Positions 3,265 to 50,634 of a stretch of 64,000 nt of DNA are shown here, piece after piece. The notes below the pieces were generated by a model. The model ran no database searches. It was given only the letters and a program-made list of their open reading frames with translations, and had not been told where the DNA came from. The first letter of the stretch is position 1, and each line of letters begins with the position of its first letter. The stretch is from positions 160,001 through 224,000 of IMG/VR virus record IMGVR_UViG_3300028591_000070. One strand, written 5' to 3'. The stretch is from a virus (Duplodnaviria; Caudoviricetes). Both the position numbers and the translations under genes were made by a program.

Positions 3265-3393
3265 AAAAGAAATAAGAATAAGCAAAAGAGTTCTGTGGGA
3301 CTTGAACCCACAAGCCATAAGGCGTTTGATTTGCGATCAAAATGAGTATACCAATTTCTCGAAGTAACTCTTTCAAACTGCATTATTTCTTTT
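3265..3393 (-). ncRNA. YrlA-like Y RNA 1 (non-permuted tRNA-like D/anticodon/variable/T insert)
   Basis: Outer stem AAGAAATAA/TTATTTCTT, TGCAG, AAAGAGT-TACTTCG...ACTCTTT; insert with TTTGA-TCGCAAA-TCAAA and GTTCAAGTCC. Confidence 0.75.
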
Positions 3394-3882: not shown

Positions 3883-3916
3883 AAAATAAAAAACCCTCTC
3901 GATTTTTTCGAGAGGG
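3883..3916 (-). terminator. attenuator terminator of tRNA operon 1
   Basis: CCCTCTCGA-AAAAA-TCGAGAGGG followed by TTTTTTATTTT, directly 5' of the first tRNA. Confidence 0.9.
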
Positions 3917-3960
3917 CTCTATAAAAATTAAACTTATTATGAATCTATCACATATCAAAT

Positions 3961-4068
3961 CTAATTTCTATAAAGTCCTCCACCGAATAGGAGTATAAAC
4001 ATTTGCTGTAAAAACAAATGTAACTGGCTGAGAAAACTAAACTGATGTAAACTCATTGTATTGTTCAT
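3961..4068 (-). CDS. leader peptide 1 MNNTMSLHQFSFLSQLHLFLQQMFILLFGGGLYRN (attenuator of tRNA operon 1)
   Basis: AAGGAG SD; codons 5-28 are all M/S/L/H/Q/F/I, the tRNAs downstream; 3' end complementary to terminator 5' arm. Confidence 0.88.
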   Translation of the reverse strand: MNNTMSLHQFSFLSQLHLFLQQMFILLFGGGLYRN

Positions 4069-4101
4069 ACCTATACTCCTTTTATATTAAATTTTATAAT
4101 T

Positions 4102-4146
4102 TAATTAGTACAGTCACTAAAAGTAACTTACATATTTTATATTAAC
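4102..4146 (-). promoter_or_regulatory. tandem promoter motifs GTTAATAT and TGTACTAATTA upstream of leader 1
   Basis: Same pair with similar spacing at 9262-9303 and 23438-23481. Confidence 0.65.
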
Positions 4147-4154
4147 ATAAACTT

Positions 4155-4586
4155 TTAACATGGGTCTCCCCAAGCATTATGTCTTATGTAGGTTGAAAAC
4201 CTGAAACCTTTATTTCTATCAGGTGGAAAAAGATGCACATAACCACTAAGCTCTTTTCTATCCATACCATCAAAAATGGAATATTCTACATACCAACCTG
4301 CATCAGTAAATTGTTTCCATGGAAGAAAGCGAATATCATCTGGAAAGTCTGGACTATCCCAAAAAAGACACGCTCTTGCATCTTCTATGGTATAAGGAAT
4401 TTCAAATACCTTAGTACTTGGATAATTGTTACCCTTATCTAGTTGCTGCTTTAAATCATCAGCAACAGCTTTCATTTTAGCATCAGAGTGCATGTTTATA
4501 TATTTTGCAATAGAATAATCATGTCTCTGTTTAATTTTAGCTTCTTCTTTCTCTACAACTTGTTCATATGTAGGGAAATTTTCCAT
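4155..4586 (-). CDS. hypothetical protein
   Basis: 143-aa ORF with GAAGG SD. Confidence 0.75.
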   Translation of the reverse strand: MENFPTYEQVVEKEEAKIKQRHDYSIAKYINMHSDAKMKAVADDLKQQLDKGNNYPSTKVFEIPYTIEDARACLFWDSPDFPDDIRFLPWKQFTDAGWYVEYSIFDGMDRKELSGYVHLFPPDRNKGFRFSTYIRHNAWGDPC

Positions 4587-4596
4587 AAAAACCTTC

Positions 4597-4878
4597 TTAC
4601 TTTTCAGAAATTAAATCTTCTTCAAAAGACATATGATACAACCAACAAGCTGCAGCTCTGATATTTGCTTCGGCTGCTCCTGGACCTTCAAGTTCAAACA
4701 TTTTAATTAAATCAGGTTCAGTATTGTAAATAGCAACTGCATCACCAGAAAGACCAACGATTAAATCTTCTTTCTTACCATTTTTATGGGTAAGAGTAAT
4801 ACCACCTTCTTTAGCATTCAAAACCTGCTTAAGGCGAGCAATCAGTCTTTTTTCTAAGTCTTCTGAAATTTTAATCAT
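4597..4878 (-). CDS. hypothetical protein
   Basis: 93-aa ORF just downstream of a TTGAAT..TATTCT promoter-like motif. Confidence 0.75.
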   Translation of the reverse strand: MIKISEDLEKRLIARLKQVLNAKEGGITLTHKNGKKEDLIVGLSGDAVAIYNTEPDLIKMFELEGPGAAEANIRAAACWLYHMSFEEDLISEK

Positions 4879-4919
4879 CTTATTTAGAATATACCTCTTT
4901 GAGTTAAAAAATTCAAATC

Positions 4920-5909
4920 TTAATTATAATCTGGCTCGTCTATTTCAAAGTCATTTTCAAAATATTTATCTGGGTTGGCCAATAATTTTTCTTTAGCTAA
5001 ATTAAAAAGCTTATTTCTTAATTCTGGGTCTGTTACATCTTGCTCATCAGATAATTCTCTCATCATGTCTTTGAGCTGAATACTATTTTCATCAATATTT
5101 ACATCAGACCATGAATAATTTACACTATCGTCATATCCTTGGTCGAGGTCGGCGTTCATTATAAGATAAACTAGATAATAAGTACCATCTAATTCAACTT
5201 CAATTTCTTTTTCATATTCACCAGAAGTATCAGAGCTGGCCCATTTACCACCAACCATGCCATTTCCATCATGTGGAACATATCCAGAGTGGTGATTCCA
5301 TGCTTCATTTAAGATATTTTCAAAAAGTTTTTTACTGTCAACTATATTCATATTATAATTAGTACTTTCATTAAACATCTTTGTTATAGCTTCATCATTT
5401 AATTGTTTTGCTAATGGATCTTCTTTATAATGGCTAATTCTTTTTTGAATAAGCTTTTTGGCATAATCTACACTTTGGTCTATAGGTTCAGCATAAAGAT
5501 GAATTAAAGGAATATCACAACCTTTAATATAAATTTCATCAGATTTTTTAGAAACCTTAAACTTACCAAAAATGAGGTGCTCAGATTCATCTGTCCATTT
5601 TGAATCTGTTTTCTGCATTTCATATGAGAGTGTATCTTTTGAAAATTCTACAACTGCAACTGATTTTCTTCCAACACCATTTGAGATATACATAAGTTTA
5701 TCAATATCTGAGGTAGTGCATGTGATTCTTAAATTGACAATACCTTCATAAAAAAGGCGGTCATCTGAGTCTATAATTCTATAAAGTGTTTTACCAGTTT
5801 TACCTTTTGTGAGAATAGTACGTAAGATTTCTGTAGATACATGGGATTTTCTTAGATATTCATTTTTACCATCTTGCCAGAGTTTTTCCCATTTTTCAAA
5901 TTTTGCCAT
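4920..5909 (-). CDS. putative virion internal protein; N-terminal domain possibly ADP-ribosyltransferase-like
   Basis: LYR..CTT..ESEHLI pattern; KKLFENILNEA linker; ACTAAT motif upstream. Confidence 0.5.
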   Translation of the reverse strand: MAKFEKWEKLWQDGKNEYLRKSHVSTEILRTILTKGKTGKTLYRIIDSDDRLFYEGIVNLRITCTTSDIDKLMYISNGVGRKSVAVVEFSKDTLSYEMQKTDSKWTDESEHLIFGKFKVSKKSDEIYIKGCDIPLIHLYAEPIDQSVDYAKKLIQKRISHYKEDPLAKQLNDEAITKMFNESTNYNMNIVDSKKLFENILNEAWNHHSGYVPHDGNGMVGGKWASSDTSGEYEKEIEVELDGTYYLVYLIMNADLDQGYDDSVNYSWSDVNIDENSIQLKDMMRELSDEQDVTDPELRNKLFNLAKEKLLANPDKYFENDFEIDEPDYN

Positions 5910-5934
5910 ATGATAAATTAGTGAGTAATATAAA

Positions 5935-5962
5935 TAAAAAAGAGGCTTATGAAAAGCCTCTT
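5935..5962 (-). terminator. terminator at end of tRNA operon 2
   Basis: AGAGGCTT-TTCAT-AAGCCTCT followed by T tract. Confidence 0.85.
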
Positions 5963-5967
5963 AAAAG

Positions 5968-6045
5968 CCGGAGTAGTAGGAGTCGAACCCACCTTAAAAA
6001 GCTGGTTCCGTAGACCAGTGCACCAATCCGATATGCCATACTCCG
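5968..6045 (-). tRNA. tRNA-Arg(ACG)
   Basis: CTGGT-CTACGGA-ACCAG. Confidence 0.88.
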
Positions 6046-6056
6046 AAAAATAAAAA

Positions 6057-6128
6057 CAGGAGCGGAAGGACTTGAACCTCCACCTGCAGGTTTTGGAGAC
6101 CTGGATGCTACCATTACACCACGCACCT
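6057..6128 (-). tRNA. tRNA-Trp(CCA)
   Basis: CAGGT-CTCCAAA-ACCTG. Confidence 0.92.
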
Positions 6129-6137
6129 ATATTAAAT

Positions 6138-6211
6138 TGAGCCCGGACAGATTCGAACTGTCGACCCTAACATTAAAAGTGTTATGCTACTACCATCTGA
6201 GCTACGGGCCC
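6138..6211 (-). tRNA. tRNA-Lys(TTT)
   Basis: TAACA-CTTTTAA-TGTTA. Confidence 0.92.
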
Positions 6212-6220
6212 GAATTGTAG

Positions 6221-6307
6221 TGAGCGTGAGAGGATTTGAACCTCCGATGGGATTTCTCCGGAAGATTAAGAGTCTTCTGTATTCGACCAAGCTATACTAA
6301 CACGCCC
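6221..6307 (-). tRNA. tRNA-Lys(CTT) with long variable arm
   Basis: GAAGA-CTCTTAA-TCTTC then GGA-GAAA-TCC variable hairpin. Confidence 0.85.
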
Positions 6308-6317
6308 ATTTAAGAAG

Positions 6318-6401
6318 TGAGCGTGAATGGAATCGAACCATCCTAGAGGAAAAATCCTCCCAGATTAAAAGTCTGGTGCACGACCAATGTGCCACACGCC
6401 C
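6318..6401 (-). tRNA. tRNA-Lys(TTT) with long variable arm
   Basis: CCAGA-CTTTTAA-TCTGG then GAGGA-TTTT-TCCTC. Confidence 0.85.
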
Positions 6402-6466
6402 ATTAAGATAAATTGTGTTTCCATTTAATTCTGGCCACTTTCTATCCCAATGGACCGAACAGAAAG

Positions 6467-6634
6467 TTATGGCCTCTGTTTCTTCTTCATTTCTTCTTCA
6501 AATTCCTCTAAACGTTTCTTCCGTTTTTCCTCTCTAGATTCTTTATTAGCTTTGGCTTCTTCAGATTCTTTCATTATGTATTCATAAAGCTTTTTAGCTC
6601 CAGGTCCTTTAAATCTTGGTGCGCCACAATCCAT
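6467..6634 (-). CDS. small charged protein (55 aa, MDCGAPRFKGPGAKKLY...) within tRNA operon 2
   Basis: AAGGAG SD, open 56-codon frame; not in ORF track. Confidence 0.7.
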   Translation of the reverse strand: MDCGAPRFKGPGAKKLYEYIMKESEEAKANKESREEKRKKRLEEFEEEMKKKQRP

Positions 6635-6653
6635 ATAAAAAATCTCCTTTAAG

Positions 6654-6726
6654 AGATGGAGGTGGGAGTCGAACCCACAACGATAAGTTTTGCAGACTTA
6701 CTTCCTAGCCTTTCGGATTCTCCACC
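6654..6726 (-). tRNA. tRNA-Cys(GCA)
   Basis: TAAGT-CTGCAAA-ACTTA, U73. Confidence 0.88.
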
Positions 6727-6805
6727 ATAAACTTATTCATTTGTACAAACTTTTAGTTAACATCAATTTCTACGCCACATTCGAGTAATTGACAAACCTT
6801 AGGCT

Positions 6806-6877
6806 TACTGGATGTAGGAGTCGGACCTACCTAAGTCGTCTTGTAAGGGCGATACCTAGCCGATAGGTTAATCCAGT
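6806..6877 (-). tRNA. tRNA-Val(TAC)
   Basis: TCGCC-CTTACAA-GACGA; T loop TCCGACT. Confidence 0.85.
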
Positions 6878-6883
6878 ATAAAA

Positions 6884-7040
6884 ACATATCATGCAAAATA
6901 CTATATAGTCTAAATATAAATGCTGCAGTTTCGAGATTAATCCTAAACCAGTACTTTGCTTCCCAGTTTGTATAGTTCGTCACACTTAGAAACAAATTAA
7001 GCAGCTTTAAACTACTTCTCCCATATTTTGTTCGATATGT
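6884..7040 (-). ncRNA. unknown rod-like structured ncRNA
   Basis: Terminal stems ACATATC/GATATGT and CAAAATA/TATTTTG, inner GCTGC/GCAGC. Confidence 0.5.
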
Positions 7041-7087
7041 CTGTTATTAGGTAGATCTCACTCAACCAAAGCTGATTTCTACCATAG

Positions 7088-7161
7088 TAGTCCAAGATGG
7101 AATTGAACCATCAACCTTCAGTTTATCAGACTGACACTCTAACCATTTGCGCTATTGGACT
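7088..7161 (-). tRNA. tRNA-Ile(GAT)
   Basis: TCAGT-CTGATAA-ACTGA. Confidence 0.9.
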
Positions 7162-7169
7162 ATAAAATA

Positions 7170-7241
7170 AGTCGTAGATGAATTTCGAAATCACGACCTC
7201 CGAATTGGCAATCCGGCGCTCTGCCTCTGAGCTACTACGAC
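7170..7241 (-). tRNA. tRNA-Gly(GCC)
   Basis: CCGGA-TTGCCAA-TTCGG, U73. Confidence 0.88.
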
Positions 7242-7247
7242 ATGCAT

Positions 7248-7354
7248 ACCATAGAATATTGCAAAAAGTTTATAATCGCGTTCCCCCATAAATATCCTAA
7301 AAATTAAGATACTTATGGCGGAGAACGAAGTAACTCTTTGACTCCGCTTATGGT
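7248..7354 (-). ncRNA. YrlA-like Y RNA 2 (long-hairpin effector)
   Basis: ACCATA/TATGGT, GCGGAG, CAAAGAGTTACTTCG, hairpin CCATAAGTATCTTAA/TTAGGATATTTATGG. Confidence 0.7.
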
Positions 7355-7359
7355 TTTAG

Positions 7360-7520
7360 TCGGTCGGCAGAGAATCGAACTCCACTTTCCCTTTTACTCT
7401 CACAGAGATGAATTCTACTCCAAAAGGCTTCATTCGTAGTTATTCCTTTCTTCTGTAAAACCATATCTCTATTACCCTCAAGGTGTATTCCTTTCATCTA
7501 CGAAAATCCAGGACGACCGA
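7360..7520 (-). ncRNA. tRNA-like RNA (acceptor and T arm) with ~120-nt internal domain
   Basis: TCGGTCG/CGACCGA ends, GGAG-TTCGATT-CTCT T arm. Confidence 0.55.
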
Positions 7521-7527
7521 TAATATT

Positions 7528-8106
7528 TTATATCCTTCCAGGTCTAAAACCTTCAGGACATTCTTTTGCTTTTATATTAATTTCTCCATTTGTATACCAA
7601 TGAGTACCAAATTGAGAATTTTTAGATCCTTTTTGATGTTCACTGTTTGTTAAACCAATTTTTCTTTTGGTTTCTTCTGAATGATGTTTACCAGTGAAAG
7701 TATCGTGTTTTTTCCAACCACAATTCTTAAAAAGATCTGGATGTTTTTCTCTTGTAGACTTCCAAGTTTTAGACATCTTAGAATAGTCTATAAACTTTGA
7801 AGTATCTCCTCCATCACCACCTTTAGCAAGATTATATTCTGCTTTACCAATAAGCTTTTGGCAAGCTATCATACATCTTTCAAAGCGATTAATTTGTTCT
7901 TTTGAGAAGAAACCAGAAACAAGAATTCTTTTTTTAAAAGACTTTTTTCCATATTTCTGATATGCTTCTCTAAGAATAGAACCAGAACCCATATATGTAT
8001 CAGATGTAATTGTACGATCTTTACGCACAGTATGCTGACCTATATAAGTTTTTCCATTCGTTAAATTTGTAATTTCATAAATATATCTTATTCGTAATTC
8101 ACTCAT
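7528..8106 (-). CDS. free-standing GIY-YIG homing endonuclease (Seg-like, NUMOD3)
   Basis: YIYEITNLTNGKTYIGQH, YMGSG, EYNL..GG, GKHHSEETKRKI. Confidence 0.92.
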   Translation of the reverse strand: MSELRIRYIYEITNLTNGKTYIGQHTVRKDRTITSDTYMGSGSILREAYQKYGKKSFKKRILVSGFFSKEQINRFERCMIACQKLIGKAEYNLAKGGDGGDTSKFIDYSKMSKTWKSTREKHPDLFKNCGWKKHDTFTGKHHSEETKRKIGLTNSEHQKGSKNSQFGTHWYTNGEINIKAKECPEGFRPGRI

Positions 8107-8136
8107 AAGATAATTAGTTAGAAATGTACAAATGAG

Positions 8137-8207
8137 TGGACACAGCCGGCATCGAACCGGTTAAACCTCCGTGCAAAAGAGGTGAGATGCCAAACCTCCC
8201 CAGGCCC
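8137..8207 (-). tRNA. tRNA-Ala(TGC), divergent
   Basis: CCTCT-TTTGCAC-GGAGG; G3:U70; weak acceptor stem. Confidence 0.75.
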
Positions 8208-8358
8208 ATAAAATAAGAGTTCTTTATATCTATAACTAAGCGCTCTATTTGTAGCTATAGATTTCACAGTGAACTTCGTGAACTTCTAATATCTGTGGAA
8301 GGCTGCGATTTTAGCTTATTAGTTCTAAAACCTCTGACACCAGTACCTTCAACGAGTT

Positions 8359-8432
8359 TGGAACATGTCGGACTTGAACCGACGACCTTCAGCTTGCAAA
8401 GCTGACACTCTAGCCAACTGAGTTAATGCCCC
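8359..8432 (-). tRNA. tRNA-Ala(TGC)
   Basis: TCAGC-TTTGCAA-GCTGA; G3:U70. Confidence 0.92.
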
Positions 8433-8440
8433 ATATAAAA

Positions 8441-8514
8441 AACATATAGAATAAAACTTGCGAGCTATATTTCAAACCCAAATCGAAGTAACTCACAAAA
8501 GCTGCTTATATGTT
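8441..8514 (-). ncRNA. minimal YrlA-like Y RNA 3
   Basis: AACATATA/TATATGTT, GCAGC, TTGTGAGTTACTTCG...GCTCGCAA, TATTC. Confidence 0.72.
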
Positions 8515-8519
8515 CTTAG

Positions 8520-8593
8520 CGAAAGCCATAGGACTCGAACCTACAATCTCCACCAACCCCTAGGTGGTGATGAACCAATTCATCTCTGCTTTC
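8520..8593 (-). tRNA. tRNA-Pro(AGG), or a variant with an 8-nt anticodon loop
   Basis: ACCAC-CTAGGGG-TTGGT or CCACC-TAGGGGTT-GGTGG; normal D and T arms. Confidence 0.65.
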
Positions 8594-8597
8594 AAAG

Positions 8598-8688
8598 CGG
8601 AAGCGGCAGGAATTGAACCTGTAAGACGCCCTCATCAGGCAATCGGCTGTTTTCAAGACAGATGAGCTCACCAATGCTCAGCACTTCC
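8598..8688 (-). tRNA. tRNA-Ser(TGA)
   Basis: CTGT-CTTGAAA-ACAG, long variable arm, G73. Confidence 0.88.
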
Positions 8689-8702
8689 ATAATAATTTTT
8701 AG

Positions 8703-8778
8703 TCGGGCAGAGAGGACTCGAACCTCCGTTGAATGCTTGGTCCCAAACCAAGTGGCATCGCCGCTAGCCGACTGCCCG
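8703..8778 (-). tRNA. tRNA-Pro(TGG)
   Basis: CTTGG-TTTGGGA-CCAAG; CGGGCAG/CTGCCCG. Confidence 0.9.
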
Positions 8779-8952
8779 ATAAACATCTTCGTGGAACTGG
8801 ATCCCTTGTTATACCACATTAGCTATCGCAATCACTTTATTGACTAGATAAAGTGCTCTACGAAATCACTACCAGACCCATATTGGTAAGCTACTTCATT
8901 TGCTATAGTCATCACAAATTTTTTACTTATTCTTCCAATACAAGAAAGATTT

Positions 8953-9023
8953 TCTGGTATGATGGAGTTGAACCACCGCCCCAAGTCTCCAAAGCTCGCA
9001 TGCTACCGTAACACCTATACCAG
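8953..9023 (-). tRNA. tRNA-Pro(TGG)
   Basis: CGAGC-TTTGGAG-ACTTG; CTGGTAT/ATACCAG. Confidence 0.82.
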
Positions 9024-9030
9024 ATATAAA

Positions 9031-9062
9031 ATAAAAAAGGTCTTTCATTTCTGAAAGACCTT
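9031..9062 (-). terminator. attenuator terminator of tRNA operon 2
   Basis: AAGGTCTTTCA-GAAA-TGAAAGACC followed by TTTTTT, just 5' of the first tRNA. Confidence 0.9.
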
Positions 9063-9090
9063 AAGTAAATCTATAAAAAAACTTATAACC

Positions 9091-9228
9091 TTACTTAAAG
9101 TCTTTCTCCTTTTTACCGGCAATAACCCATTTAGAAGAACAAGGCACAATACGAGGGGCAACTGCTTTCGCAGACGCAATAGAAGAGGCACAAATAATTG
9201 AACGACCGATAATTCCATTCTCTACCAT
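9091..9228 (-). CDS. leader peptide 2 MVENGIIGRSIICASSIASAKAVAPRIVPCSSKWVIAGKKEKDFK (attenuator of tRNA operon 2)
   Basis: AAGGAG SD; codons 5-40 are all G/I/R/S/C/A/K/V/P/W, the tRNAs downstream; 17-nt complement to terminator 5' arm. Confidence 0.9.
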   Translation of the reverse strand: MVENGIIGRSIICASSIASAKAVAPRIVPCSSKWVIAGKKEKDFK

Positions 9229-9342
9229 AATCTTATTCTCCTTTATATTAAGTTTATACTATAATTAGTACAGTTACCAAAAATAACTTAATAAAATATT
9301 AACATTGTTTTTAGTATTTTATTAAATTATCTTCAAAAAAGA

Positions 9343-10225
9343 AAGCTGAGATTTATTGACTTTCCTCTGCGTCCATCTTCATCACTTTCGCAACTTAACC
9401 ACACTTTCATTTCTGAAAGTAGAACGCATAGCGAATAACTTAAAGGTGTTATCTACCTACTACAATAAGACTAATAATTTCATTTTTCATCCCTAGCGGC
9501 TTGCGGCCTAAGAAGCTTGCGGGCTCCTACCAGTTGATTACTTCAATCCATTCTTGACTTTCCTTGCGGTACTCACCAAGTCAACATATTACAGTTGAAT
9601 AACGCTATTTTCATCTTATCGTGACCAACACTTTTGCTTATCATGGCACAAAATGCTGGACTTGAACCAGCCACATTTAGATTAATAGTCTAACGCTCTA
9701 TCCTACTGAGCTAATTCTGTAATTATCGGTGAACTTCCTTGGGAGACGAGGTTGACCTTAATACCATGGCACCTTTTGAGTGCTTTAGGTAAATCGCCTC
9801 TCTTTTTTCGTCTGCTAAACTACTCAATCTAATAAAGTCAACATCTCTCACTTTCGCTTAAGCGTCAACATAATTCGTTATCATCTCACTCAGAATTTTG
9901 CATGTTCTTATTAGATGATATACATATCCCATATGTAAGCTTTCGACCCACATTCTTTTCAATCTTGTCTTTTAGACTTGATCTAAGCTCGTTGTTCAAC
10001 CGAGCAATACCACTGCAAACCTCAGCATTTGCCATCAATCTGCGCCATAGTATCTTGAATATGTAGTTTTCGTATGAAGTGATAAATCACCGCTGCACCT
10101 TTACGAATGCAACTTTCGCCGCTTATGAATTCACGGTTTATTCTAACGACTAGAAACCAGCCGGTGAACCCGAAGGTTCGATTAAATTACTGAGGATTGA
10201 ACCTCTATAACCTTGTAGTTAAGTA
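9343..10225 (-). ncRNA. large ornate ncRNA, probable GOLLD RNA
   Basis: ~880 nt ORF-free, many GNRA-capped hairpins (CCGCAAGG, GCGAAAGT), embedded tRNA, phage tRNA-island context; family assignment from recall. Confidence 0.65.
9644..9720 (-). tRNA. tRNA-Asn(ATT) embedded in the GOLLD-like RNA
   Basis: ACAGAAT/ATTTTGT acceptor, TTAGA-CTATTAA-TCTAA, encoded GCCA end. Confidence 0.8.
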
Positions 10226-10269
10226 ATTTATAATAATATATTAACAAGTTTTTTGAAAGCTTGCAAAAA

Positions 10270-10408
10270 AGATTGAGAATTTTGTGAAAAAGTATTTTTA
10301 CGGCGTGCTAACCAACTACACTAAAGCTCCCATAAACGGAGCTTACAGGATTCGAACCTGTGATACCGGCGTGATAGGCGAAGTAACTTTTTCGATCTGC
10401 ATCAATCT
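10270..10408 (-). ncRNA. YrlA-like Y RNA 4 (circularly permuted tRNA-Asp-like module)
   Basis: TGCAG..AAAAAGTTACTTCG; order anticodon remnant, T arm, closed acceptor stem, D arm. Confidence 0.82.
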
Positions 10409-10411
10409 ATA

Positions 10412-10537
10412 TTCGGAAGGTGGGATTCGAACCCACTCTCATTTTTGAGCGGCAACTCAACGTTTTTGTCCTACCAGCCATTTTTCGATACTTTTATCAA
10501 GATTGCCGTCTCTCAATTTTCTCTAGGTAGCTTCCGC
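10412..10537 (-). ncRNA. tRNA-like RNA with ~45-nt insert replacing the anticodon loop
   Basis: CGGAAG/CTTCCG acceptor, CGGCAA/TTGCCG stem, variable hairpin, GTGGG-TTCGAAT-CCCAC. Confidence 0.6.
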
Positions 10538-10622
10538 ATAATTTGTTGCTGCTTATTAGCAGCTTATTTAGAATATACCAACAATCAAAATTAAATTCAA
10601 AAATAAATTTAATTTTTTATAA

Positions 10623-10697
10623 AACTTTTATGTAGGATTTGAACCTACGCTTCCGACACAGCGGGCCGGCGCTCTGACCAACTAAGCTAACAAAAGT
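10623..10697 (-). tRNA. tRNA with non-canonical anticodon loop CCGCTGT (nominally GCT); possible pseudo-tRNA
   Basis: Canonical D and T arms, CCGGC/GTCGG anticodon stem. Confidence 0.6.
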
Positions 10698-10961
10698 CTT
10701 CAATGCTACCCTCAAATCCGTCGATAGAGGACATCTACTCTTATATTCCGTCGAACATAATTCTAATTAAAAGATCCTCTCTACCAGCATAACCTGTTGT
10801 AGAGAGGCAAAAAGCAGAGTCGGTACTAGTCTAGAACTAGATTTCGTCTTAGTCACGTTTAGGAGATTGGACTCACTCCTTAACCTACTCAGATACCCTT
10901 TAATTGATTGTGTCTTTATTCTCACCTTCGTGGCCACCATCGTGGAAGACACAATATTATA

Positions 10962-11285
10962 TTAACAATCCTGATTAATCAATAAAGGAATGTAACTTTT
11001 AAGTTCTTCATCATCTAAATCATATTGTTTTTGATAATCCATAAATTCTCTTTTTGACATTGTAGAACCATCACTAAGTTCAATAGGACTATGTAAATCT
11101 TCTTCAATTTCTTTTTGTCTCTTAATTATAAGTTCATGTCTGGCACCATCTAAAAAAGTCATTTCAAGCCAATATTTAGACTTTTCTTTTCCAGTTCTAG
11201 AACTTTTCCATTTAGCTTCTGCGGCTTTAAAATCTTTTTCTATTTTAGTTATTAGACCTACAGTTTCTGTTATAGCAATATCCAT
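10962..11285 (-). CDS. hypothetical protein
   Basis: 107-aa ORF, apparently leaderless after GTATATTCT. Confidence 0.75.
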   Translation of the reverse strand: MDIAITETVGLITKIEKDFKAAEAKWKSSRTGKEKSKYWLEMTFLDGARHELIIKRQKEIEEDLHSPIELSDGSTMSKREFMDYQKQYDLDDEELKSYIPLLINQDC

Positions 11286-11343
11286 ACTTAGAATATACTT
11301 TTAAAAATAGAAAAGTGCCCAAAAAATGGACACTTTAATAGAG

Positions 11344-12096
11344 TTATTTGCTGTATAAAACCTTGTACCAGCTTTTTATGATTTTTTCTTCATTTTTGTG
11401 AAGCCATCTCATAAATTGCTCTTCAGTTTTAAGATTATTTGGAATGATATTTCTTTTAACAAGAAAAGGAATCAAGCCTCTATCACAAGATGCTTGTGTA
11501 TAATCATGCCAATTAACTTTTCTAACTGAAACCCAAGTAGCTCCTGGCTCTAAATCTGACATTAAAGGCTGATGATATAAAGTTTTTGAAACTTTTTTAT
11601 ATGTTGGTTCCCAAGTTGTCCAATGCTTGTGAAAATGTCTTCCATATTCGCCTACATTTGGATTGAAAACCCAATCATCATGTGCTTCTTTATGCCAGCC
11701 AATTACGACCTTATAAGATAATTCATATTCAATTGTTATGAATTTAGCATCTCTGTATCTCTGATATTCTACCCAAGGATTGTACCAGACATCCCAATAA
11801 TAACACTGTTCTTTTAAGGCTTCATTAAACTCTCTTCTAAGAGTGCAAAGGTCATCCTCGAATTTGCTTCTCCCATCTGAAGGCCAAGACCAAGGATCTG
11901 CACTTTTGCAACCAAAGTCTCTACCTTTTGCGGTAATTTTTTCAGAAGGGCGAGCATTGTCGCCATCATCAATGAATTTTAATTCTTCTTTTAATAATGT
12001 ACGGATTTTTCTTCTTACTGAACGGTGATATTCTGTTCTACAAACTTTATCACCTCTGTATGAAGGAGTATAACCTCTTCTGTAACTTCTGCTCAT
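11344..12096 (-). CDS. hypothetical protein with basic MSRSYR N-terminus
   Basis: 250-aa ORF; AGGAG SD inside a hairpin. Confidence 0.8.
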   Translation of the reverse strand: MSRSYRRGYTPSYRGDKVCRTEYHRSVRRKIRTLLKEELKFIDDGDNARPSEKITAKGRDFGCKSADPWSWPSDGRSKFEDDLCTLRREFNEALKEQCYYWDVWYNPWVEYQRYRDAKFITIEYELSYKVVIGWHKEAHDDWVFNPNVGEYGRHFHKHWTTWEPTYKKVSKTLYHQPLMSDLEPGATWVSVRKVNWHDYTQASCDRGLIPFLVKRNIIPNNLKTEEQFMRWLHKNEEKIIKSWYKVLYSK

Positions 12097-12813: not shown

Positions 12814-14499
12814 TTATTGCTGATTTACAGCATGTCTACCAGCTTTCTTGGCCTGTTTTTCCTGGTCTTTCTGAGCTTCGATAGCATCCCACTGCTTGAT
12901 ATAAGCGTCAGCGAATAATGCTTCTTTTCCTGTCCAACCATACAAGAATGCTGTACGGTAGCTCATTTCTGGAATAAGAACATTATCATATCCAGCTGTT
13001 TGACAGCTAAATACATTTACCTTTGGATTTACCTTTTTGCGATATTCCTGAATAAGTGCATAAACATTGATCATATGACCCTTACATCTGAAGCTTCTGT
13101 AGTCATCATCATTAAGACCATATAATCCACCTGTTCCTGCCTGCTGGTCTGAGAAAATGAAAATATTATCATAAACTTCTTTCTTTGCAATTGCATCTTT
13201 GAAGAATAACCAAATACCATTCTCAGTACCACCACCTACATCGTTATCTCCTCTGCTTGATAAAAGCTTTGTCTGAGCAAGAGCACCATTTCTCTTAGAA
13301 ACTGGAGATGTAATAAGTCTGTCACCAAATTTACCAACATAACCTTCATCTGAAGCTTTTGCAATTAAAATTGAAGACAAGTTGTCAATATCAGCAATAG
13401 TAGTCCTTCCATATTCAGAAGTAAATCCATGCCATGCAGAACCTGAGTTGTCAGAAAGAACCATTGTCTTTCCCTTCAACTTTGGTAAGTTTTCAATTGC
13501 AATGTCCATACACTCTTCAAGAGCATCAAGAATTAAAGTCTGGTGATTGATACCTGAAGCCTCTTCAATCATCTGATATGCATTCCAATATCTGAATGGG
13601 AACTGCTTACCTTTAAGGACTCCACCTTTCAAATCTTCCAAAACTTTCTTACAGAATTCTGTGTCTTTTACATCTGTGAAGATGTTTCTCAAGTTGCGTA
13701 AAAGAGCCATGTGCTGCATACAGCCTGACTCATAGATTTCACGCCAACCCATTCCAGCAGAGCGTTTCTGTTCCCAAGTTTCCCTGTCTTCAGTAACCTT
13801 TACTGTACCTGTCTGCATCAACTCATTCAAAACTGGTGAGTTTGCATGAGAAATACGAACACCATTGATCATACCAATTTCGTGGTTCTTGTATTTGTTA
13901 ACAGCATAAGCATCCAATGAGCTAAGTTTCTTAGCAATAGACTTTTTCAAGATTGTTGGAATCTTGTTTTTCTTACCACCATTAATATACATGTAATATG
14001 TAAGCTGAGTAAGTGGCTCATCTGCACGAGACATAACCAACTTTTCTACAGCTGCAAACTTTCCAGGATTTGCATTACAGAAATCAGCACGCTTTGGATG
14101 GATTGCTGCACGTACCATAATAACCTGTGGATTAAGGCGCATATTGTATGTTTTACGCAAATCAACTGCAAAGTCCAAAGTTCCGCCAAAGTCATAATCC
14201 AATGCCTTATCAATAGCTTCAGTAAATACCTCTGTTGTTGATTTTCCTGCACTAGCAGAGAAGATTGCATACATAGCTGGATCGGTAAATTCCTTTTGCC
14301 AAGAGAATTTTCCATCCTTTACATCTTTTCTGTAATAAGAAGCCTCACCAAAAATTGATGATGCTGAAATCAACTTGAGAGTATCAAGTGGATTTACTTT
14401 GTAAGAATCGCCACCCATAAAGTTTGTAACGATTTCATCTGGTCTAAGTTTATTCATCTCATTCATCTGAGATACTGCTTTAGCCATTTTCTTGCTCAT
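12814..14499 (-). CDS. rsr: Ro60/Rsr TROVE-domain RNA-binding protein with vWA domain
   Basis: NFMGG, MALLRNLRN, KQFPFRY, vWA MIDAS DNSGS, FIFSDQQ, GWT. Confidence 0.92.
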   Translation of the reverse strand: MSKKMAKAVSQMNEMNKLRPDEIVTNFMGGDSYKVNPLDTLKLISASSIFGEASYYRKDVKDGKFSWQKEFTDPAMYAIFSASAGKSTTEVFTEAIDKALDYDFGGTLDFAVDLRKTYNMRLNPQVIMVRAAIHPKRADFCNANPGKFAAVEKLVMSRADEPLTQLTYYMYINGGKKNKIPTILKKSIAKKLSSLDAYAVNKYKNHEIGMINGVRISHANSPVLNELMQTGTVKVTEDRETWEQKRSAGMGWREIYESGCMQHMALLRNLRNIFTDVKDTEFCKKVLEDLKGGVLKGKQFPFRYWNAYQMIEEASGINHQTLILDALEECMDIAIENLPKLKGKTMVLSDNSGSAWHGFTSEYGRTTIADIDNLSSILIAKASDEGYVGKFGDRLITSPVSKRNGALAQTKLLSSRGDNDVGGGTENGIWLFFKDAIAKKEVYDNIFIFSDQQAGTGGLYGLNDDDYRSFRCKGHMINVYALIQEYRKKVNPKVNVFSCQTAGYDNVLIPEMSYRTAFLYGWTGKEALFADAYIKQWDAIEAQKDQEKQAKKAGRHAVNQQ

Positions 14500-23402: not shown

Positions 23403-23789
23403 TGAAAATCTACTCCTCCAAATTAAGTTTTATATTTTAATTAGTACAATCATTAAAAATGATTGATGTATTTATATTAACATACTTTTGAAAAGTATGC
23501 TAAATATTTTCAAAGAAAAGCTCCAAAACTTTCAACTGATTAGAAAGAAAAAAGCTTATGCTAAAGCTCGATCCAACTTGCTACAATAGGGTAAGCTAAG
23601 CTGATTGTCCATACTTTAGTTTCATTAATCGGGGATGCCCGATTAAAGGCAACCTTCCACCACCAAGTTTCATTAATGTTTCTGAGAAGGAAGCTTCAAA
23701 AAACCTGGAAACAAATACCTTATTTAGAATATACTCAAATCTTATAAAAAGTTCAAGTAATTTCTAATGTTTTTCCATTTACAAATAAA

Positions 23790-49896: not shown

Positions 49897-50634
49897 ATGG
49901 CATTAACAAAGGAACAGCAATATAAACTCATTAATAGGTATCAGAGTGGGGATAAGACTGCTTTAGTTGAATTGATTAAAGCAAATGAAGGTCTTGTCTG
50001 GGATAGTGCCTATAAGTTTTACAATATCCATAAGTCACGTTTGAAGACTGTAGCAGAAGCAGCAGATTTTGCCCAAGAAGGGTATATTGGCCTTATTGAA
50101 GGTATTAGACGCTTTGATACAACAAAAGATGTTGAGTTTAGTACTTATGTTAGATTTTGGATTGAACAAAGATGTCGCCTTTTTGCAAGAGAATATTACT
50201 CTTCTGTAAAAATTTCTACTACAAAATATGAACAGCTTATGAGAAAAAAGATGTATGAATCTTTTGGAGTAGACTGCATCAAGTCATCTACTTTGGATGA
50301 AGTTGATAGAATGGCAAAGGTCTCAAGTCTTAATGTTATTATAGGTGACTCATATGACGAAATGATCGACCTTTTGGCAGATAATAATGCAGAAGACCCA
50401 CTAAATAAATGTGCGCAAGCATCAGAGCATGATTATTTGCAGCATCTATTTGATAAATATCTTACTGAAAGAGAGCAGCATATCATTAAACTTAGAACAA
50501 ACTGGGATAAGTGCATGGAAGATTTTGCTACTCTTCAAGAAATCGGTGATGATATGGGCATTACTCGTGAAAGAGTTCGCCAAATCGAAAACAAAGCATA
50601 TAAAAAGTTAAAGTCACATCTTAAAGATTACTAA
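49897..50634 (+). CDS. RNA polymerase sigma70-family factor
   Basis: LIKANEGLV, QEGYIGLIEGIRRFD, FSTYVRFWI, TLQEIG..ITRERVRQIE. Confidence 0.92.
   Translation: MALTKEQQYKLINRYQSGDKTALVELIKANEGLVWDSAYKFYNIHKSRLKTVAEAADFAQEGYIGLIEGIRRFDTTKDVEFSTYVRFWIEQRCRLFAREYYSSVKISTTKYEQLMRKKMYESFGVDCIKSSTLDEVDRMAKVSSLNVIIGDSYDEMIDLLADNNAEDPLNKCAQASEHDYLQHLFDKYLTEREQHIIKLRTNWDKCMEDFATLQEIGDDMGITRERVRQIENKAYKKLKSHLKDY

Follow-up and report, generated by a model that had tools for sequence, protein, structure and literature searches.

In the multivalent attenuation leaders of enterobacteria, such as those of ilvGMEDA (Ile/Leu/Val) and thr (Thr/Ile), as in the classical leaders trpL, hisL, leuL and pheL, a short open reading frame (ORF) led by a Shine-Dalgarno (SD) sequence and rich in regulatory codons is combined with two mutually exclusive hairpins, an antiterminator and a terminator that precedes the first gene; termination ensues when the ribosome reaches the stop codon, readthrough when it stalls. 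In E. coli, attenuation at the pheM leader controls the aminoacyl-tRNA synthetase operon pheST. The T-box, in contrast, binds uncharged tRNA directly via a specifier codon and the T-box sequence and involves neither a ribosome nor an ORF. Bacterial tRNA genes are, to our knowledge, controlled at their promoters and not by attenuation, and we know of essentially nothing on how phage tRNA arrays are regulated or why they are organised in blocks; a full-text literature search likewise retrieved no paper on leader-peptide attenuation of tRNA genes or of phage tRNA arrays. Here, we describe an element, termed attenuator 2, that precedes a tRNA operon in a 64,000-nucleotide stretch of phage DNA (hereafter the window), comprising bases 160001-224000 of the virus record IMGVR_UViG_3300028591_000070 (385,934 bp; GC content 31.7%). 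Judged by its sequence and by folding predictions, this element is probably a ribosome-mediated (leader-peptide) transcription attenuator of the phage tRNA operon. All coordinates refer to the window, with the strand given as (+) or (-).

The regulated operon (5967-9024, -) consists of 14 co-oriented tRNA genes called by ARAGORN/Rfam in the order Pro, Pro, Ser(tga), Ala, Ala, Gly(gcc), Ile(gat), Val(tac), Cys, Lys(ttt), Lys(ctt), Lys(ttt), Trp and Arg(acg). Its first gene, tRNA-Pro, begins at 9024, and a strong intrinsic terminator (5940-5962, -) directly follows tRNA-Arg(acg). The second tRNA-Ala (8136-8207) is called by ARAGORN alone. The operon thus represents ten amino acids, as the initial annotation had listed; the third tRNA-Pro of that list (about 8519-8593) turned out to be a sub-threshold tRNA-like sequence, which ARAGORN reports only when its threshold is lowered.

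Upstream of tRNA-Pro lies a co-oriented leader ORF of 45 codons plus TAA (9091-9228, -), which starts with the ATG at 9228 and ends with the stop codon at 9093-9091. The SD sequence AAGGAG (9238-9243, -), read from the sequence, is located 9 nucleotides before the ATG. Codons 5-40 (9109-9216, -) encode 36 consecutive residues, hereafter the sensor run, which are exclusively Gly, Ile, Arg, Ser, Cys, Ala, Lys, Val, Pro or Trp; all ten are present, and they are exactly the amino acids of the downstream tRNAs. This composition, and the peptide quoted in the initial annotation, were recovered residue by residue. Leu, Phe, Met and Thr do not occur in the sensor run, His and Tyr are absent from the entire leader peptide, and the residues outside the set (Glu3, Asn4, Glu41, Asp43 and Phe44) are confined to the start of the ORF and to its tail, which encodes part of the antiterminator described below. 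The ten amino acids account for 48% of the residues in long ORFs of the phage genome, and an in-set run of 36 residues is expected by chance about 3e-6 times over all six frames of the genome. No longer in-set run exists in the 386-kb genome, where the runner-up comprises 20 residues and is located inside a 607-aa protein. Over the whole leader peptide, 39 of 44 residues belong to the set, as compared with the background of 48% (p=1.9e-8), and by this fraction the leader ranks first among 1608 ORFs of at least 30 amino acids. The codons show a bias of their own. Both Arg codons are CGT, as previously proposed for a match to Arg(acg), while AGA makes up 62% of the Arg codons genome-wide. Five of the six Ala codons are the rare GCC or GCG, which together represent 11% of the Ala codons of the genome.

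The end of the leader ORF overlaps the RNA switch. A 17-nucleotide antiterminator 5′ arm (9090-9106, -) begins with the final base of codon 41, runs through codons 42-45 and the stop codon and extends one nucleotide beyond it; it pairs at 17 of 17 positions, including two G-U pairs, with the antiterminator 3′ arm (9053-9069, -), which bears out the pairing across the stop codon that had been suggested earlier. The 3′ arm includes the complete 5′ half of the stem of an intrinsic terminator (9028-9062, -), which consists of an 11-bp stem (9062-9037) and a U-tract (9036-9028) and ends 4 nucleotides before tRNA-Pro. The antiterminator is the minimum free energy (MFE) fold of the 91-nucleotide element (-28.9 kcal/mol, z = -6.05). 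The two states are nearly isoenergetic, with -24.3 kcal/mol when the terminator is forced and -26.0 kcal/mol for the antiterminator; masking the first 24 nucleotides of the arm region results in formation of the terminator (-15 to -17 kcal/mol). In the nascent transcript, 10 of 10 nucleotides of the terminator 5′ half are already paired upstream.

The effect of ribosome position was followed by footprint folding, in which the region from -15 to +12 around the A-site was masked codon by codon and the probability of the terminator helix was computed. In silico, this probability amounts to 0.02-0.43 with the A-site at codons 1-37 and to 0.82-0.97 from codon 38 through the stop codon. The predicted folding therefore behaves as the initial annotation had anticipated: a ribosome at the stop codon would allow termination, and a ribosome stalled further upstream would allow antitermination. 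The switch point at codons 37/38 agrees with the placement of the out-of-set residues, which are restricted to codons 1-4 and the arm-coding tail, although this agreement was not built into the search. Since Glu41, Asp43 and Phe44 lie within the arm-coding tail, a stall at these residues could no longer free the arm. Glu3 and Asn4 are located upstream of the switch point, and limitation for Glu or Asn should consequently induce readthrough as well; His and Tyr, being absent from the leader peptide, are valid negative controls. In addition, the MFE fold contains a small hairpin with a GAAA (GNRA) cap within codons 18-24 (9150-9175, -), to which the rare GCC and GCG Ala codons contribute and which tolerates the variants found in relatives. 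This hairpin may serve as a pause element for RNA polymerase (RNAP).

A promoter-like region (9253-9280, -) precedes the SD sequence. It comprises the box TGTACTAATTA-N3-TATAAA at 9272-9253 and a -35-like TTGGTA at 9280-9275. The 386-kb genome contains three exact copies of the box TGTACTAATTA-N3-TATAAA and no more, all of them ahead of leader ORFs; each copy lies 44-46 nucleotides upstream of a short SD-led ORF, with a terminator and a tRNA block following in turn. The box presumably works as a promoter. Paralogous module 1 (3890-4112, -) consists of the box at 4112-4093, a leader ORF at 4068-3961 and a terminator at 3920-3890, and precedes genes for Phe (two), Leu (four), His, Gln (two), Ser(gct) and Cys together with a tRNA lacking a D-arm with the anticodon UAU. 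Paralogous module 3 (23251-23448, -), with the box at 23448-23429, the leader ORF at 23402-23301 and the terminator at 23272-23251, precedes Asn, Tyr, Asp, Met, Thr, Glu and Gly(tcc). The three operon sets jointly cover all 20 amino acids. A tmRNA gene of the phage (23787-24155, -; Rfam 62.5 bits), specifying a tag peptide of 16 residues, is found directly upstream of the promoter box of attenuator 3.

Each leader matches its own operon. Leader 1 contains 22 of 34 residues from its own set (p=1.8e-6; rank 43 of the 1608 ORFs by own-set fraction) and leader 3 contains 24 of 32 (p=5.5e-5), and all off-diagonal combinations of leader and operon are depleted. Moreover, the match extends to codon boxes. 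The Ser codons are AGT, AGT and AGC in leader 1, which precedes Ser(gct), and TCN (six codons) in leader 2, which precedes Ser(tga), with AGY representing 26% of the Ser codons genome-wide. Likewise, Ile is encoded by ATA in leader 1, whose operon includes the UAU tRNA, and by ATT or ATC (seven codons) in leader 2, whose operon includes Ile(gat), and the only Gly codon in leader 3, GGG, corresponds to Gly(tcc). The UAU tRNA (2787-2869, -) was missed by ARAGORN and is recognised by Rfam with 34.8 bits; its anticodon loop reads CUUAUAA (UAU, Ile/AUA), its D-arm is reduced to 4 nucleotides, its variable arm is long, and it corresponds to the one ATA codon in leader 1. The stop codon falls within the upstream arm in each of the three modules, and in the nascent RNA the terminator 5′ half is pre-paired at 11 of 12, 10 of 10 and 8 of 9 nucleotides in modules 1, 2 and 3, respectively. 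Of these modules, attenuator 2 presents the cleanest case. The presence of two paralogs with differing leaders, each matched to its operon, makes it very unlikely that the arrangement arose by chance or that the peptide serves some unrelated function.

Related loci were sought with the box and with neighbouring genes. A 22-base version of the box retrieved 15 metagenome loci, all of them true relatives, whereas patterns with 15-17 specified bases yielded mostly chance matches in IMG/VR and one true related contig (L022/L040/L062). The same contig alone was found when a TROVE-domain protein was used as anchor, and the neighbouring 329-aa protein retrieved no relatives in IMG/VR. A near-identity search of the phage collection with positions 4100-12000 (megablast) gave no match, and the one match of the box in GTDB genomes, in a Chitinophagaceae metagenome-assembled genome devoid of tRNAs, was rejected as a chance hit. 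The metallophosphatase gene beside operon 3 has homologs with 46-55% identity in loci without tRNAs; the contigs of its relatives with 61-74% identity are too short to include the leader.

In total, 16 related loci were available, and attenuator 2 could be compared across seven distinct DNA versions. The box and the SD sequence are invariant among these versions and the terminator and the arm almost so, and the relatives retain the reading frame, the position of the stop codon within the arm and both hairpins. The stop codon is TAA or TGA at the same arm position in every relative. The leader displays at least 7 synonymous third-position differences, and its insertions and deletions are in-frame only (+3 and -9 nucleotides; -15 nucleotides in protein variants). 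All seven versions are predicted to fold as antiterminator (-28 to -34 kcal/mol) and as terminator once the arm is masked, and the antiterminator pairing is maintained in each of them. In half of the variants GAC-TTT is replaced by GAT-CTT, which converts the pairs C-G/U-G to U-G/C-G opposite the same GG and thereby keeps the pairing while Phe is exchanged for Leu. At the peptide level, every variant is at least 86% in-set and the abundant variants are in-set throughout (100%); the out-of-set variants all belong to small clusters, except for one cluster of 30 members.

All structural elements of an attenuator, namely a co-oriented short ORF with an SD sequence, matching codons, a terminator before the first gene and an exclusive antiterminator, are thus present and correctly placed, and the selection of the fold by ribosome position is reproduced in silico, which supports the earlier reading computationally. 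Promoter activity, translation of the leader and coupling of ribosome and polymerase are what we infer from this arrangement. With regard to the polymerase, the phage encodes a sigma-70-family factor, as indicated by a region-2 match of 46 bits in a 246-aa ORF (about 49972-50181, +), and no homolog of the RNAP beta subunit was detected in the whole phage genome. Together, these two observations make the use of host RNAP, and with it intrinsic termination, plausible. The phage presumably uses host RNAP, for which intrinsic terminators are meaningful, and the sigma-70-family factor is a candidate recogniser of the TGTACTAATTA box.

In the mechanism that we propose, host RNAP, possibly directed by the phage sigma factor, would start at the conserved box, and a ribosome would load on the SD sequence and translate the 45-codon leader while the polymerase nears the terminator. 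With ample supply of aminoacyl-tRNAs for Pro, Ser(UCN), Ala, Gly, Ile, Val, Cys, Lys, Trp and Arg(CGN), the ribosome would proceed to the stop codon and cover the 17-nucleotide arm; the terminator hairpin would then form and transcription would stop 4 nucleotides before tRNA-Pro. Upon slow decoding at any codon of this set, which could arise from depletion or cleavage of host tRNAs during infection, the ribosome would stall within codons 5-37 and leave the arm free to pair with the terminator 5′ half, and the polymerase would read through into the 14 tRNA genes. The outcome would be a demand-driven negative feedback of the phage on its own tRNA supply. Extending this scheme to all three modules, we favour, with some reserve, a demand-sensing system in which three attenuators partition the 20 amino acids down to isoacceptor boxes and each induces its own block only if the codons of that block are decoded slowly, as might follow from the degradation of host tRNAs or their cleavage by anti-phage nucleases.

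Several observations weigh against this interpretation. The initial annotation had spoken of cognate codons, which holds at the level of amino acids and fails under strict wobble rules: 13 of the 36 codons of the sensor run (GGA, GCC three times, TCT five times, GTT twice and CCT twice) would require U34 to read all four bases, and the Gly-GCC tRNA does not read GGA. No pairing of the 1:2 type (pause/anti-antiterminator) with the arm was found in attenuator 2, and the default fold without translation is, unlike in trp, readthrough. Modules 1 and 3 prefer the terminator at equilibrium, by margins of 11 and 5 kcal/mol, respectively, and neither of them showed equilibrium switching but only co-transcriptional sequestration; their switching, if real, must be kinetic (kinetic trapping). 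The covariation of the antiterminator is weak (95% of cells pair, with 65 of 500 shuffles doing equally well, in only 7 closely related sequences), and among 18 peptide variants 17 variant residues are in-set and 12 out, which does not differ significantly from the expectation of 0.50 for random single-base changes. Neither the covariation nor the variant spectrum of the relatives is statistically decisive. Furthermore, a quick scan of an unrelated phage contig with 37 tRNAs (L016) revealed no composition-matched leader ORFs, indicating that the design is not universal. Rumen metatranscriptome contigs from 4 runs of 4 studies cover parts of the operon, and one contig of a relative (8950-9497) includes the leader, the terminator and part of tRNA-Pro; given that these data are assembled contigs without strand, ends or level, in which carry-over of DNA is possible, they give no more than a hint that RNA libraries contain the attenuator region, and no meaning attaches to the parts of the operon that the contigs leave uncovered.

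The preference for the terminator in modules 1 and 3 at any ribosome position, together with the lack of significant in-set constraint in the variants, is what would be expected if the ORF were translated merely to occupy the 5′ leader, as protection against Rho or RNase or as a timing delay, and if a constitutive partial terminator set the tRNA dosage without any sensing of codons. We regard this as quite improbable, since it leaves the composition and the codon match of all three leaders unexplained and does not account for a nearly isoenergetic two-state switch in attenuator 2. Conservation of the peptide in relatives in the presence of synonymous changes, and its richness in Ser, Ala, Cys, Gly and Ile, could also reflect a functional micropeptide, hydrophobic or Cys/Ser-rich (for instance, a substrate of a radical-SAM enzyme), encoded beside an ordinary leaky terminator. 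The peptide has no match in Pfam, and such a function would explain neither the exclusion of Leu, Phe, Met and Thr alongside inclusion of every amino acid of the downstream tRNAs, nor the two paralogs with unrelated peptides that each match their own operon, nor the constant location of the stop codon within the antiterminator arm; it appears highly unlikely. That the ORF is a chance feature beside an ordinary terminator is effectively excluded. Short ORFs are abundant in AT-rich DNA and leader 1 reaches only the above-mentioned rank 43, but the sensor run has an expectation of about 3e-6 per genome and is the genome maximum, three leaders independently match their operons, and SD sequence, frame and stop position are conserved in the 16 related loci.

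A different question is which signal such an attenuator would report. The same hardware could respond to amino-acid starvation of the host or to global translation capacity and thereby tune tRNA output or the timing of infection. A stalled ribosome reports a missing aminoacyl-tRNA whatever the cause, and the circuit is indeed unable to tell tRNA shortage from amino-acid shortage, which is a further point against tRNA-supply sensing; moreover, with readthrough as the default without a ribosome, a global block of translation would also turn the operon on. Extra tRNA, however, gives no relief from amino-acid starvation, and the use of AGY versus TCN for Ser, of ATA versus ATY for Ile and of CGT for Arg tracks isoacceptors, which fits tRNA sensing better. 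Starvation sensing is thus an unlikely alternative. Because codon boxes and not just amino acids are partitioned among the three leaders, we infer that the physiological signal is tRNA shortage rather than amino-acid shortage.

In its logic, the element comes nearest to the multivalent ilvGMEDA and thr leaders and to pheM-pheST. As an attenuator of a tRNA operon, it shares with the leaders of the ilvGMEDA, thr and trpL type the SD-led ORF rich in regulatory codons, the terminator before the first gene, the exclusive antiterminator and the predicted coupling of ribosome position to termination or readthrough. It differs from the leaders of amino-acid operons in that it would regulate tRNAs and not biosynthetic enzymes, that its sensor comprises ten amino acids in 36 consecutive codons, as compared with the one to three sampled by known leaders, and that no 1:2 hairpin is evident, so that the absence of translation would lead to readthrough. 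In addition, it is phage-encoded and one of three paralogs among which all 20 amino acids are divided, and it corresponds to no leader family in Rfam: neither the amino-acid leaders (Trp, His, Leu, Thr, Phe) nor the T-box riboswitch (RF00230) matched at E<=1 across 9025-9300. Weak matches of the Leu and Phe leader models were found elsewhere, at a terminator at 2550-2660. As in pheM, a component of the translation apparatus would be governed by the speed at which its own cognate codons in a leader peptide are translated; pheM, however, senses Phe alone and controls a protein-coding operon, whereas here ten amino acids would be sensed and the products are tRNAs, which closes a direct feedback loop. 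Like the T-box, attenuator 2 would couple the state of specific tRNAs to the choice between terminator and antiterminator upstream of translation-related genes, but it has a predicted translated ORF and no T-box match. In the Caulobacter phage phiCbK, an annotated rho-independent terminator separates the annotated 45-codon gene gp083 from downstream tRNA genes for Pro (two), Lys (two), Leu (three) and Ser (two), and 24 of the 44 residues after the start Met of gp083 are Pro, Lys, Leu or Ser. This match is much weaker, as 16 residues are Ala or Thr without such tRNAs in the block, and gp083 has no sequence similarity to attenuator 2. Attenuator 2 very probably works by ribosome-mediated attenuation, a known mechanism newly applied to a tRNA operon.

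The window belongs to a virus record with an estimated completeness of 100% (CheckV). It harbours 45 tRNA calls (ARAGORN) and one tmRNA, every one on the minus strand, and most of the ARAGORN calls are supported by Rfam as well. Near-identical DNA is present in sheep and bovine gut samples.

Within operon 2, a gene for a SegE-like homing endonuclease with GIY-YIG and NUMOD3 domains is inserted at 7528-8106 (-). It is missing from several relatives, in which the spacing between the Ala and Gly tRNAs is about 500 nucleotides versus about 970, and one contig from the RNA libraries skips 7523-8203, around the endonuclease gene. Between tRNA-Cys and the Lys tRNAs, a strongly Lys/Glu-rich ORF of 55 codons (6467-6634, -) with a good SD sequence is variable among relatives and well covered by RNA-library contigs. 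This ORF was considered as a second leader and rejected, as no terminator or antiterminator is located downstream of it. Several tRNAs carry variable arms that are unusually long for tRNAs of their identity (6220-6401, 2596-2684 and 3286-3371, -), with total lengths of 88 nucleotides for Lys(ctt), 85 for Lys(ttt), 89 for Gln(ttg) and 86 for Cys(gca); the two Lys tRNAs of phiCbK are likewise long (88-91 nucleotides). The long variable arms could be relevant to evasion of anticodon nucleases.

Further RNA elements adjoin attenuator 2. Directly upstream of its promoter box, the model of the GOLLD RNA matches over its full length at 9343-9802 (-) with 96 bits (E=4e-25), which is under the Rfam gathering score of 150. 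A call for 'tRNA-Asn(att)' at 9644-9720 is embedded within this GOLLD-like region, and a rumen RNA-library contig matching 9409-9463 therein reaches a depth of about 2300. A weak match to YrlA (Y RNA-like; 10283-10393, -) adjoins an unclassifiable tRNA-like call at 10412-10488, and the 561-aa TROVE-domain protein (Ro60/Rsr-like; 12814-14499, -) is encoded 2.3 kb upstream of it. The YrlA-like RNA and the TROVE protein may constitute a Ro-Y RNA module of the phage inside the tRNA region.

If the proposed function of attenuator 2 is correct, it would represent the first leader-peptide attenuation of tRNA genes and, with ten amino acids sensed by one leader, the most multivalent attenuator known, extending classical attenuation to a new target class and to ten-fold multivalency. 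It would also give synthetic biology a natural, compact device for sensing the supply of aminoacyl-tRNAs. For the phage, the arrangement would imply that decoding speed is gauged directly and only scarce tRNAs are topped up, following a simple and testable logic for each block, and it would tie phage tRNA arrays to the depletion of host tRNAs and to tRNA-cleaving defence systems.

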